From the IMG/VR virus record IMGVR_UViG_2548876944_000011: a stretch of DNA of 7,409 nucleotides; one strand, written 5' to 3'. The stretch's first letter is position 1, and each line of letters starts with the position of its first letter. Positions 3,456-6,435 of this stretch are shown piece by piece. Source of the DNA: a virus. Taxonomy: Duplodnaviria > Heunggongvirae > Uroviricota > Caudoviricetes. The notes under the pieces were generated by a model that saw only the letters and a program-made list of their open reading frames with translations, was not told the DNA's origin and searched no databases. The translations under genes were made by a program, and so were the position numbers.

Positions 3456-3717
3456 TGGAATGAAACGCAAATACCGGTAAGCCAGATTCTGGCACTGACA
3501 GACAGAAAACCTGTTATCTGTCAACGAACAGGGAAAAAACGATAAAACCCACTGGATTATTTTTATGAAAGAGGCATCCAGTGAGTAGGTTCGTAAGGTT
3601 ACAGATACGTATATCTGAATAATTAAATTCAGTTCTGTAAATAAAATTTAATCCTTAACCGGATGGATTTCTGCACCCTCAGAACATCAGGAGGCCGCCC
3701 GAAAGGGCGGTAGTGAA

Positions 3718-3828
3718 ATGCGAAAGCTCAAAATTATTATTGAAACGGGAATAGCTGGTGGAGATTTTGAGGATGTATTCGAAGTGGACGATGACGCAAC
3801 ACCTGAGGAAATTCATGACGGAGCATAA
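3718..3828 (+). CDS. small acidic ORF, 36 aa, uncertain
   Basis: ATG 3718 to TAA 3826, MRKLKIIIETGIAGGDFEDVFEVDDDATPEEIHDGA. It is preceded by a GAAA-tetraloop hairpin (3694..3710) and a distant AGGAGG. The frame continues acidic (EIFFNYCNYSYHEIKDDEEEQSG) for 23 more codons after the TAA. Confidence 0.25.
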   Translation: MRKLKIIIETGIAGGDFEDVFEVDDDATPEEIHDGA

Positions 3829-3877
3829 GAAATTTTCTTTAACTACTGCAATTACTCATACCACGAAATAAAAGACG

Positions 3878-4069
3878 ATGAGGAAGAACAAAGTGGCTGA
3901 TTTTTGTTCAGCTAAATATAACATCAGTTTTGAAGAGCGGGATGAACTATTAATGGACTATGGTGAGTTACGCGGTGGAAGTGCTGCTGATGTCGAATCC
4001 TAGCGTGATGACTATGAAGCGGGAAAAACTCCGGTCGAAGCATATTGTGATGAGTGGGGCGATGAATGA
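3878..4069 (+). pseudogene. small phage ORF interrupted by an in-frame TAG (about 63 codons if read through)
   Basis: ATG 3878 (or GTG 3893 with GAGGAAG upstream) gives ...VADFCSAKYNISFEERDELLMDYGELRGGSAADVES, then TAG 4001..4003, then RDDYEAGKTPVEAYCDEWGDE to TGA 4067..4069. That stop overlaps the next ATG in ATGA. Confidence 0.3.
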
Positions 4070-4353
4070 GCGAGATTAATTATCAGGAAGGGCATGAAAC
4101 GGCGGGGCAAGCAAAACCAGTGGCATGGCGATATCGCTACGTGAAAAAAGGCGTTACGGACTTTCAGGGGAAGTAGTGGTCTGGTGACTGGAAATATGTA
4201 CCGAAAAAAGAGGATTGTAACGACAGGCCGAACTATCAAATTCAGGCCTTATTCACTGCCTCACCAGTCCCAGTTACATCAGAAGAACTGGTTAAAGCTG
4301 TGCACTTTTATGAACAACTAAAACGCGAAAATCCACCAACATCCGGCAACTAG
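4066..4353 (+). pseudogene. small phage ORF interrupted by an in-frame TAG (95 codons if read through)
   Basis: ATG 4066 gives MSEINYQEGHETAGQAKPVAWRYRYVKKGVTDFQGK, then TAG 4174..4176, then WSGDWKYVPKKEDCNDRPNYQIQALFTASPVPVTSEELVKAVHFYEQLKRENPPTSGN to TAG 4351..4353. The start is coupled to the upstream frame by ATGA. Confidence 0.35.
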
Positions 4354-4607
4354 ATTAATGGATTAACTATGTCGGTTAAACGACCAGCCAACTGAAAAAG
4401 CGGAAACCTGATTACAGGTTGCCAGATAAGGCAATGAGCTACCTGGCGCGGAACGGACTGATAAGTATGGGGAATGTTTTACGATGAACCTTTAGACTAA
4501 AGAGTTTGTAACGCTATGTAAGTGATTTTTTCTGGTTTAGATATTTATATGTCCGGCCAAATTGAGGTGTGTTTAAATGTAATTGCACATTGATTGTAGG
4601 AGGAATA

Positions 4608-4787
4608 ATGAAAAACGCATTGCAGTTTTTGTTTGTTGCGTTCTGGTTGTTCGCATCATGTATGCCCATCATCTTCACAGCAAGGTATATGGAAAAAGTT
4701 GATGTTTTGATATTAATATTTGGATATATAAATGCCCTTTTTTTAGGGGTGTTCATGGCGGTCATGTGCATTGAATACTGGCGGTAA
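4608..4787 (+). CDS. small hydrophobic protein, 59 aa, two predicted transmembrane helices; function unknown
   Basis: Track ORF 4569..4787. The internal ATG 4608 is preceded by a consensus AGGAGG at 6 nt spacing, giving MKNALQFLFVAFWLFASCMPIIFTARYMEKVDVLILIFGYINALFLGVFMAVMCIEYWR. Two ~22-residue hydrophobic stretches are separated by RYMEKVD. The local sequence is strongly AT-rich compared with the replication genes. Confidence 0.55.
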   Translation: MKNALQFLFVAFWLFASCMPIIFTARYMEKVDVLILIFGYINALFLGVFMAVMCIEYWR

Positions 4788-5093
4788 ATACAGCGAACTC
4801 CATTGGTTTAGTTGGATATTTACTGTGCTGGACAAAAACGGTTTGCGGGGAAATCTTAGTTAAGTAGAATGACTGCGGGTGCTTGAGGCTATCTGCCTCG
4901 GGCATGGACACCAACGGCAGATAGAGAAAAGCCCCAGTTAACATTACGCGTCCTGCAAGACGCTTAACATTAATCTGAGGCCAATTTCATGCTAGACACA
5001 TGTAGGTTAGCCTCTTACGTGCCGAAAGGCACGGAGAAGCAGGCTATTGTTAACACCAAGCTGTAATGTCCCCTTTGAACCATTCTAAAATGT

Positions 5094-5120
5094 CCCCAGA
5101 CAATTCTCTGGGGGATTTTT
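5094..5120 (+). terminator. terminator-like hairpin that pairs the transposase Shine-Dalgarno, just 5' of the tnp ATG
   Basis: CCCCAGA (5094..5100), loop CAATTC, TCTGGGG (5107..5113), then GATTTTT and ATG at 5122. The 3' arm contains the G-rich ribosome-binding site. Confidence 0.45.
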
Positions 5121-5121
5121 C

Positions 5122-6435
5122 ATGATCAAAGAGACTGTTACGATGAGTCATAAGGAACTCCACCGACTTCAGATTATTCAGGAACAAGCTGCGGCACGCA
5201 TTGGCATTTCTATTCGGCAGGTTAAACGTCTGGTGCAACGGTATAGAAATGAAGGGCCTTCTGGTCTGGTTTCCCACCGACGTGGAAAGCGTCCTAATAA
5301 TTCCTTTTCTACTGAATTCAGAGCAACAGTAATTTCACTCCTCAAAGGCCGTTACGCTGATTTTGGACCTACGTTTGCGTGCGAAAAATTGCGCGAGATA
5401 CACGGTTTATCTTTATCCGTTGAAACTCTCAGAAAGTGGATGATAGAAGAGGGGTTATGGCGTGAACGCCGTCGTAAAATTGCCCGTATATATCAACGCC
5501 GCATGCGACGACCATCTTACGGTGAACTGATCCAGATTGATGGCTCACCTCATGACTGGTTTGAAAATCGAGGCCCCAGATGTACACTGATCGTTTTCAT
5601 TGATGATGCCACCAGTGCGTTGATGGCGTTGCGTTTTGTGCCTGCTGAAACAACCCGGGCTTACATGGAAACCCTCCGGGGTTACCTTAATGATCATGGC
5701 GTACCGCTCGCTCTCTACTCTGATAGACACAGTATATTCAGGGTAAATAACCCAGAGCGGGAAGGTGAGCTGACCCAGTTCACTCGTGCGATAAAGACAC
5801 TGGGCATCGAGCCAATCCATGCCAACAGCCCGCAGGCAAAAGGGCGGGTAGAGCGCGCCAATCAGACACTACAGGACAGGCTGGTCAAAGAAATGCGGCT
5901 TCAGAATATCAGTGATATTGAAACAGCAAATGCATGGTTGCCGACCTTTATTGAAGCCTATAACAACCGGTTCGCTACGTCGCCTCGTACTACTGATAAT
6001 GCTCATCTTGATGTGCACCATTCTGAAGAGGAACTGGGTTATATCTTCAGCCTACAGGCGAAGCGCGTTCTGTCTAAAAATCTCACTTTCCAGTACAAAA
6101 GCAGTGCGTTTCAGGTACGCAGTGAGGGCCGGGGATATCGACTTAGGCATTCGGTTGTTACTGTATGCGAGAACTTTGACGGTGAAATTAACGTTCTGTA
6201 TGACGGGAAAGCGCTGGGCTGGGAAAAGTATGTTGATGGCCCGGAGCCTATACCACCGGATGATGAAAAGAGTGTCCATGAACGAGTGGATAATGCCCGT
6301 ATTGATTTACGCTCAAAATACTATGTTAAACCTAAAGCTGACCATCCCTGGCTTACGCGCCGAACGCAAAGTCATCAGCAAGTTAAGCCCCCGAAGTTAC
6401 CTAAAAAGAAGCCTGATCCCGATAAAAAAGATTGA
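5122..6435 (+). CDS. DDE transposase with an integrase-core (rve-type) fold, 437 aa; IS481-like or ISNCY-like, family not assignable by eye
   Basis: Track ORF. N-terminal HTH region (RIGISIRQVKRLVQRYRNEGPSGLVSHRRGKRP). Candidate catalytic triad in QIDGSPHDW, LALYSDRHSIF and NSPQAKGRVERANQTLQDRL. Basic lysine- and proline-rich C-terminal tail. Confidence 0.85.
   Translation: MIKETVTMSHKELHRLQIIQEQAAARIGISIRQVKRLVQRYRNEGPSGLVSHRRGKRPNNSFSTEFRATVISLLKGRYADFGPTFACEKLREIHGLSLSVETLRKWMIEEGLWRERRRKIARIYQRRMRRPSYGELIQIDGSPHDWFENRGPRCTLIVFIDDATSALMALRFVPAETTRAYMETLRGYLNDHGVPLALYSDRHSIFRVNNPEREGELTQFTRAIKTLGIEPIHANSPQAKGRVERANQTLQDRLVKEMRLQNISDIETANAWLPTFIEAYNNRFATSPRTTDNAHLDVHHSEEELGYIFSLQAKRVLSKNLTFQYKSSAFQVRSEGRGYRLRHSVVTVCENFDGEINVLYDGKALGWEKYVDGPEPIPPDDEKSVHERVDNARIDLRSKYYVKPKADHPWLTRRTQSHQQVKPPKLPKKKPDPDKKD

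Follow-up and report, generated by a model that had tools for sequence, protein, structure and literature searches.

A probable gene for a 59-residue membrane-hairpin protein upstream of hok in lambdoid prophages of Escherichia coli and Shigella

ORF59 and the module that carries it

ORF59 is a short open reading frame (ORF) in a 7,409-nucleotide stretch of viral DNA (Caudoviricetes; IMG/VR record IMGVR_UViG_2548876944_000011), and by the window we mean that whole stretch. The window is a Qin-type cryptic lambdoid prophage of Escherichia coli, 99.6% identical to ATCC 8739, along which we found dicA (- strand), dicC, a ydaT-like gene, an O-like replication gene, a DUF977 gene, a methyltransferase gene, two PGAP pseudogenes, ORF59, an ISNCY-family transposase gene and flxA (- strand), in that order. 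ORF59 occupies 4608..4787 on the + strand, from an ATG at 4608 to a TAA at 4785-4787, in keeping with a preliminary description of the window that had placed a 59-residue frame within 4500-4800, and its product is MKNALQFLFVAFWLFASCMPIIFTARYMEKVDVLILIFGYINALFLGVFMAVMCIEYWR. Sequence, hydropathy, an AlphaFold2 model, intactness across related loci and constraint in a second lineage together support its reading as the coding sequence of a helical-hairpin membrane protein.

The start codon is preceded by a Shine-Dalgarno sequence, AGGAGG at 4598..4603 (+ strand), with a spacer of 4 nucleotides (AATA) and not of 6 as first reported; the accompanying claim that this is the strongest such site held, the start of ORF59 having the best Shine-Dalgarno sequence among the 11 starts scored in the window. 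AGGAGG occurs three times on the + strand of the window and never on the - strand, and only the copy at ORF59 precedes a start codon, those at 1088 and 3689 having none behind them. The GC content, described earlier as lower than that of the neighbouring genes, is indeed low, at 37.2% in ORF59 and 35.9% over 4500-4800 against 45.3% for the whole window. T stands at codon position 2 in 31 of the 59 codons and G+C at position 3 in 30 of 59, against 20 and 17 for G+C at the other two positions, which is the pattern expected of a membrane-protein gene. When the 340-nucleotide module was simulated with a first-order Markov model, an ORF of at least 59 residues beginning with ATG appeared, in any frame, in 14.5% of the simulations, and 2.5% of those ORFs were as hydrophobic as ORF59; since a perfect, correctly placed Shine-Dalgarno sequence comes on top of this result, a chance origin is less likely still.

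The left edge of this AT-rich module is the TGA stop (4485-4487) of a decayed nin-region gene (4066..4487, + strand), which carries frameshifts and internal stops and is a PGAP pseudogene in ATCC 8739; the two pseudogenes of ATCC 8739 span about 3718-4487, upstream of ORF59. An intact 114-residue gene of phage vB_EcoS-689R5 (689R5 below) matches positions 4383-4487 with its 3' end, at 79% identity. Both flanks are homologous in that phage, on the left the end of the upstream gene and on the right the stretch preceding the hok promoter, and about 4512-4778 is lacking, which takes in the greater part of the spacer and almost the whole of ORF59; BLAST puts the unmatched part at 4488-4829, and the AT-rich module absent from 689R5 thus spans about 270-340 nucleotides. 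Phages 640R1 and PhiR42_1 carry the module, followed by an intact or a split hok (640R1 has the leader of mok and hok whole), and in intact phages ORF59 lies between the replication/nin genes and hok-rem-ydfU-rusA-Q. In K-12 the whole ydfX-ydfW stretch is deleted and ORF59 is absent, so that K-12 expression data do not cover it. Because it is AT-rich and absent from the related phage 689R5, ORF59 can be regarded as accessory, moron-like cargo, as had been supposed.

The 5' spacer of the module (4488..4607, + strand), itself AT-rich and absent from 689R5 from 4512 on, yielded no sigma-70 promoter on either strand in a consensus scan, a scan low in sensitivity that also missed the hok promoter, and the RNA fold of the ORF59 5' region was no more stable than that of shuffled sequences (z = +0.39). 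Two other readings were considered and rejected. A GTG start at 4569, used in some GenBank records for a product of 72 residues, has no Shine-Dalgarno sequence, and the paralog presented below starts at the ATG homologous to 4608. An 85-residue shadow ORF on the antisense strand (4514..4771, - strand), labelled 'hypothetical' or 'hornerin' in some phage records, likewise has no Shine-Dalgarno sequence (2/6 matches) and no family matches, and it is the + frame that holds the codon-periodic constraint; judged in this way, the annotations in those phage records are on the wrong strand.

The predicted protein has two hydrophobic segments (Kyte-Doolittle 15-residue means up to 2.3-2.4) on either side of a charged loop, RYMEKVD, and a grand average of hydropathy of 1.27. 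AlphaFold2, run with a 9-sequence alignment, modelled helices at residues 2-26 and 28-58 with a mean predicted local distance difference test score of 74, and the two-helix membrane protein of the preliminary description is thus recovered by both kinds of prediction. The first transmembrane helix (TM1) would cover approximately residues 4-25 (nucleotides 4617-4682) and the second (TM2) approximately residues 33-55 (4704-4772), leaving beyond TM2 a tail of only four residues, E-Y-W-R. As the N-terminus carries K2 or R2-K3 and the loop is neutral to acidic, the positive-inside rule would give a topology with both termini in the cytoplasm (N-in/C-in).

ORF59 had been called an orphan, and it stayed one: there was no Pfam or PADLOC family at E-values up to 10, no match in PHROGs, in NCBIfam or in a sequence-profile search of the PDB, and nothing significant when the model was compared by Foldseek with BFVD and the PDB (best E-values about 1-3), so that neither profile search nor structure comparison gave homology to a known family. 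The peptide string turned up nowhere in a literature search. In sequence searches no host of the protein other than E. coli and Shigella came up, and a scan of one genome per species gave these two alone. Within E. coli the module is common, being present in 1570 of 5426 complete genomes (29%), always at 95% identity or more, and about 1240 genomes match its flanks but not the module. Some GenBank records name ORF59 a 'hypothetical protein' or a 'membrane protein'.

A second lineage and the position upstream of hok

When 1.84 billion representative proteins were searched exhaustively with phmmer, a second lineage emerged, P0122, likewise of 59 residues and 41% identical to ORF59 (E = 1.2e-8), of which the common allele, P0127, reads MRKILMYLCISIWIVISCVPIILTSEYLTEASIMALMFGHANALCIGVFISIIYIECWR. 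ORF59 and P0127 align codon for codon, with the same start and stop and without a single insertion or deletion (indel), and the flanks of the two align only with several gaps. Against an identity of 59% at the nucleotide and 41% at the amino-acid level, the nucleotide identity at codon positions 1, 2 and 3 is 58%, 71% and 47%, respectively; the proportion of nonsynonymous differences (pN) is 0.34, that of synonymous differences (pS) 0.72, which is saturated, and the ratio of the corresponding rates (dN/dS) about 0.19. Under neutral substitution at equal divergence, an amino-acid identity at least as high as that observed has a probability of 0.004, the absence of an in-frame stop one of 0.029, and the excess of position 2 over position 3 one of 0.005.

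In the family sequences 22 residues are invariant (M1, L5, L8, W13, S17, C18, P20, I21, I22, T24, Y27, L36, F38, G39, N42, A43, L44, F49, I55, E56, W58 and R59), and G47 is present in all sequences but one. ORF59 carries the full family signature, namely a length of 59 residues, W13, S17-C18-x-P20-I21-I22-x-T24, F38-G39-x-x-N42-A43-L44, a C-terminal I-E-x-W-R and a position upstream of hok. No third lineage came out of a search with a profile built on these two.

The paralog is also frequent. P0127 is encoded, in intact form, in 1045 of the 5426 complete E. coli genomes (19%), nearly all at 99% identity or more, where it adjoins ttcA and a phage integrase fragment, upstream of uspF and ompN, in a minimal prophage remnant; in K-12 this site is the attachment place of the Rac prophage. 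In the E. coli locus that we used to place its features (L210), the paralog ORF lies at 5001-5180, beside ttcA and the integrase fragment, and the 3' half of a decayed hok coding sequence follows at 5235-5300, about 55 nucleotides after the P0127 stop (80% identity over 66 nucleotides, E = 4e-13). This remnant has an in-frame stop, and its leader and 5' half are deleted. ATCC 8739 bears the ORF59 allele of the window; ATCC 25922 appears to have allele 2 of ORF59 together with the paralog. Because the codon alignment is free of indels, the substitutions follow codon position, dN/dS is about 0.19 and a hok remnant lies beside the paralog, we consider that there is good evidence for a real gene family, and that ORF59 is very probably a gene whose protein sequence has been under long-term constraint.

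The true neighbour of ORF59 itself is a hok/sok locus split by an insertion sequence (IS)-type element. Intact related loci run straight from the hok leader into mok and hokD, MKQQKAMLIALIV..., and in the window the hok homology ends at 5047, where an element starting TGTTAACACC... is inserted. Among 98 related loci, 74 have an intact hok and 22 the IS junction of the window, and 96 of the 98 continue from ORF59 into the hok leader. The preliminary description, which had ORF59 wedged between a decayed tract and an IS element, was right about the decayed tract (the two pseudogenes upstream), but a hok promoter region and a 171-nucleotide leader come before the IS element at 5048. Its overall interpretation is supported in part: the gene, the hairpin, the accessory status and the lack of a family stand, and the downstream hok/sok neighbour, the most informative one, had been missed. 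Both lineages lie directly upstream of hok and read in its direction; behind these two independent observations there may be a functional link, or one phage segment may have been handed down to both.

Intactness within the ORF59 lineage was assessed in 120 IMG/VR loci, collected with a 21-mer anchor in the upstream spacer and thus blind to the state of ORF59, of which 113 were long enough to score. ORF59 was intact (59 residues) in 112 of them and truncated in one. A run of seven T (4738..4744, + strand) is where the rare variants P0019, P0022 and P0024 lose the frame, and the IMG/VR sample held one 1-nucleotide deletion at 4738; slippage or sequencing error could account for frame loss at this run. 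Frameshifted or truncated variants are each found on a few to tens of contigs, against at least 1000 for each intact allele. A different kind of rare protein (P0029-P0035) keeps the first 23-36 residues of ORF59 and then continues into unrelated sequence, in one case into a hemolysin-III-like frame (PF03006). Most of these breaks fall between residues 23 and 29, which suggests a recurrent breakpoint or insertion hot spot at about 4680-4700 (codons 24-30), in the AT-rich stretch that encodes the loop.

What the ORF59 product might do

The explanation that we favour, at a probability of about 0.75, is a joint one: ORF59 would be a genuine gene for a 59-residue membrane hairpin, belonging to an undescribed two-lineage family of lambdoid prophages and prophage remnants in E. 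coli and Shigella, expressed by read-through and acting through helix packing. Since it has a strong Shine-Dalgarno sequence but no recognisable promoter or terminator of its own, the frame would be translated from the phage early-right read-through transcript, on induction and not in the quiescent lysogen. The product would insert as an N-in/C-in hairpin, almost wholly embedded in the membrane; by our prediction only about 14 residues lie outside the bilayer, and ORF59 would therefore have to act inside the membrane. Its action in the inner membrane would rest on a conserved face of polar and small residues (W13, S17-C18-x-P20-I21-I22-x-T24, Y27, F38-G39-x-x-N42-A43-L44, G47 and the C-terminal I-E-x-W-R), through which the helices would associate with further copies of the protein or with a partner in the membrane. 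Specific packing of the helices is suggested by the conserved polar cluster of S17, C18, T24, Y27 and N42, by the kink-forming P20 and by the G39-xxx-A43-xxx-G47 face. That the role consists in binding or modulating a partner is a possibility to which we hold only tentatively.

Several observations weigh against this explanation. The Shine-Dalgarno sequence is polymorphic at 4601 among the related loci, which carry AGGAGG in 54 cases and AGGGGG in 54. The lack of a sigma-70-like promoter on either strand is joined by the lack of a terminator between ORF59 and hok. RefSeq annotation (PGAP) has no coding sequence at ORF59 in any of 40 evenly sampled genomes, nor at the paralog in any of 25. The coding test is one deep comparison, between two lineages only, and a helical hairpin, to judge by the model, is too generic for fold matches. 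Polymorphism within the ORF59 lineage is entirely nonsynonymous, with 10 replacements (A16V, M28I, V31I, I37M, Y40H, A43V, L44I, V48G, V52G and M53T) and no synonymous change over 143 nonsynonymous and 34 synonymous sites, a ratio that fits neutrality (P about 0.12) and rejects an omega of 0.2 or less on the within-lineage timescale (P about 3e-4). Lastly, the one copy of the region that diverges by more than 5% (L087 2002-2930, from E. coli ECMA0423; 89% identity, indels throughout) has three frameshifts in ORF59 and a degraded Shine-Dalgarno sequence beside an intact hokD, the coding sequence of which is 98.7% identical and gap-free; either the parts of this locus have truly decayed to different degrees, or its assembly is prone to indels.

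These points lend themselves to two other accounts of the frame. One is that ORF59 is spurious, an AT- and T-rich spacer left open by chance, in which T-rich DNA reads as hydrophobic and the Shine-Dalgarno sequence is a coincidence. The 14.5% of composition-matched simulations that gave a frame of this length, the consistent absence of a PGAP call, the missing promoter and terminator, the wholly nonsynonymous polymorphism and the long overlapping antisense ORF all agree with it. We nevertheless judge it very improbable, given that the second lineage keeps all 59 codons, the start and the stop without an indel and with codon-periodic substitutions at a dN/dS of about 0.19, that only 2.5% of chance ORFs are as hydrophobic, that the perfect AGGAGG is the sole correctly placed one in the window, and that codon position 2 is rich in T and position 3 in GC. 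The other account, compatible with the explanation we favour and somewhat unlikely in our view, is that the gene was once functional and, in this cryptic Qin prophage, now drifts neutrally as a relic. The prophage is defective, with pseudogenes upstream and a hok split by an IS-type element, and the 10:0 polymorphism, the frameshifted and truncated alleles and the decayed copy in ECMA0423 would follow from drift; on the other side, nearly all sampled loci and by far the most contigs have ORF59 intact, decay is not yet to be expected at so low a diversity, and dN/dS is known to be raised over short timescales when very close relatives are compared. The neighbouring hok, taken as a control, looks likewise relaxed (7 synonymous and 16 nonsynonymous changes), so that the within-lineage test has little power, and variation at this scale neither proves nor disproves that ORF59 is coding. 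The lesson is that within-species polymorphism could not establish coding and a single deep paralog comparison could. Two of the replacements, I37M and Y40H, are the residues of the second lineage at those positions, and the allele of the window is therefore probably the derived one at residues 37 and 40.

Where the gene is accepted, two further proposals compete with partner binding by a helix-packing hairpin. ORF59 might be a toxin- or pinholin-like oligomer, self-associating through the G39-xxx-A43-xxx-G47 face and N42, causing an ion leak and depolarisation, and harmless in lysogens where it is not transcribed. The conserved small-residue spacing with an Asn at mid-membrane in TM2, the strong Shine-Dalgarno sequence without a promoter, the adjacency of another membrane toxin gene, hok, and a size and two-helix layout like those of class II holins and pinholins would suit this role. 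We consider it unlikely, as the protein has no charged C-terminal tail, its gene is outside the lysis cassette, no holin, toxin or defence family matched, neither an antisense RNA, by RNA-family match, nor an occluding 5' structure, by folding, was found, unlike in type I toxins, and the conserved SCxPIIxT polar cluster suggests specific packing and not generic membrane damage. A link to Hok itself, with ORF59 modulating it as a membrane immunity factor, co-toxin or timing factor, draws on the position immediately upstream of hok sequences in 96 of 98 loci of the ORF59 lineage and at the paralog. These are two independent observations of synteny only, explained equally well by shared ancestry of one phage segment; moreover, close hokD loci without ORF59 exist (phage 689R5), as do the roughly 1240 genomes with the flanks and without the module, the paralog is intact where hok is destroyed, and the classical hok/sok system of R1 works without a protein partner. 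We regard such a link as distinctly improbable, and the bolder form of it, in which ORF59 is a protein component of prophage hok/sok modules and the hairpin binds or gates Hok (as immunity factor, co-toxin or timer), as a long shot. Were it true, the RNA-controlled one-protein hok/sok would become, in lambdoid phages, a two-protein membrane module, which would explain the adjacency in both lineages. The constant position by hok/sok in any case supplies a concrete, testable hypothesis.

Several known systems resemble ORF59 in part. Phage morons include small inner-membrane products, such as the superinfection-exclusion moron gp15 of HK97, and T4 has Imm; like morons, ORF59 is small, AT-rich, present or absent between homologous phage genes and predicted to yield a tiny inner-membrane product without a soluble domain. 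It has no sequence or family relation to them, and classical morons are autonomous units with expression from the prophage, whereas no promoter or terminator of its own was found for ORF59 in a scan of low sensitivity. Class II holins and pinholins, for example S21-68 of phage 21, share with it a length of about 60-70 residues, two transmembrane helices, a predicted N-in/C-in topology and a small-residue zipper in TM2. Unlike them, ORF59 lacks the charged cytoplasmic C-terminal tail and the dual start, has a strongly hydrophobic TM1, lies in the early region upstream of Q and not in the lysis cassette, and matches no holin in PHROGs or Pfam. With Hok/Gef it has in common that it is a small prophage-borne membrane protein, physically linked to hok in both lineages. 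Hok, however, has about 50 residues, one transmembrane helix and a periplasmic Cys-containing tail, and is controlled by mok, Sok and a folded leader, whereas ORF59 has two helices, no Pfam Hok match, no antisense RNA match and an exposed Shine-Dalgarno sequence, and it is not related to Hok. As for a type I toxin-antitoxin arrangement around ORF59 itself, no - strand promoter was seen in the scan that also misses the hok promoter, and the 5' fold is as unremarkable as reported above. There is also a general resemblance to the unannotated small membrane proteins of E. coli known from ribosome profiling, which are shorter than 60 residues, hydrophobic, missed by annotation and often prophage-encoded; ORF59 differs in being absent from K-12 and hence outside K-12 studies.

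The preliminary description had listed membrane-depolarising toxins, superinfection-exclusion factors and immunity proteins as typical cargo of this kind. Nothing in the present analysis shows any of these roles for ORF59, and the fact that the scan recognised no promoter of its own speaks against its being expressed in the lysogen, on which exclusion or immunity would depend. ORF59 fits best as a new family, as yet uncharacterised, among the small membrane proteins of prophages. With its paralog it occurs in 29% and 19% of complete E. coli genomes, respectively, yet it is in no family library and no gene is annotated in the RefSeq genomes sampled, and it thereby adds one more small membrane protein to the 'dark matter' of prophages. 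It is also tractable, having 59 residues and clear conserved intramembrane polar and small residues to mutate.

The split hok locus and minor features of the window

Between ORF59 and hok lies a spacer (4788..4876, + strand), in which the three loci compared share homology over about 4788-4829. A hok promoter can be read in the spacer by eye, with a -35 element TTGCGG (4843-4848), 16 nucleotides and a -10 element TAGAAT (4865-4870), placed relative to the Rfam model start at 4877; this is the promoter that the scan missed. The 5' leader of the hok mRNA follows (4877..5047, + strand, 171 nucleotides) and ends exactly at the hok start codon. It was recognised through the Rfam family RF01794, named 'sok', which matched at 4877-5048 (+ strand) over model positions 1-157 with 104.1 bits against a gathering score of 59. 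Because the consensus of this family ends in AUG and matches in the hok-sense orientation, the 'sok' match marks the hok leader and not the antisense RNA. It begins 90 nucleotides after the ORF59 stop and belongs to a separate hokD locus, and over ORF59 itself there was no RNA-family match. A weak match of the same family on the - strand (4754-4935, 18.9 bits against the gathering score of 59) was rejected: the first hairpin of the hok leader is nearly palindromic, and the match is its echo.

The element that splits the locus begins at 5048 with its left end, TGTTAACACC..., and the part up to 6435 (5048..6435, + strand) includes a transposase of 437 residues (5122-6435), an 'ISNCY family transposase' in PGAP, with helix-turn-helix and rve_3 domains, of the IS1202 family (ISNCY). 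Directly before it stands the left copy of a 15-bp direct repeat, GGAGAAGCAGGCTAT (5033..5047, + strand), which flanks a 3.3-kb element; the second copy of GGAGAAGCAGGCTAT lies outside the window, directly upstream of the hokD ATG in ATCC 8739 (L001 9948-9962). The repeats enclose a unit of 3299 bp, inserted at the hokD start codon, extending beyond the end of the window (7409) and made up of the IS1202-family transposase gene, ydfW, flxA, ydfV and relBE, the ends of which are imperfect inverted repeats starting with TGT and matching at 20 of 27 positions. The IS1202 family is described as having TGT...ACA ends, imperfect inverted repeats of 24-26 bp and transposases of about 440 residues, and one of its subgroups makes unusually long target duplications of 16-28 bp (PMC10132070). 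According to PMC6379469, which cites Ramisetty and Santhosh 2016, relBE integration truncated the ancestral hokD/mok frame. To judge by this arrangement, a transposon-like element came between hokD and its leader, mok and Sok, and relBE and flxA look like its cargo. We did not find the transposon-like boundaries of the 3299-bp unit described in PMC10132070 or PMC6379469, and they may not have been described before.

Some smaller features of the prophage may be recorded here. Just upstream of the ORF59 module, at 4405-4420 on the - strand, a terminator-like hairpin, AACCTGTAATCAGGTT, is followed by TCCGCTTTTT; it is not conserved in phage 689R5, and it could stop leftward (antisense) transcripts coming through ORF59. 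Further upstream, at 3689-3720 (+ strand), the second AGGAGG of the window precedes a GC hairpin (CCGCCC GAAA GGGCGG) and then, 23 nucleotides downstream, the ATG at 3718 of the DUF7167 pseudogene, a layout that suggests a Shine-Dalgarno sequence separated from its start codon by a structured spacer. The window and the corresponding ATCC 8739 locus (L001) differ in length by 25 columns in their alignment. In L001, a 20-mer, TCTTGTAATGTTAACTATCA, occurs twice, 25 nucleotides apart, at 8370-8414 (about window 6769 onward).

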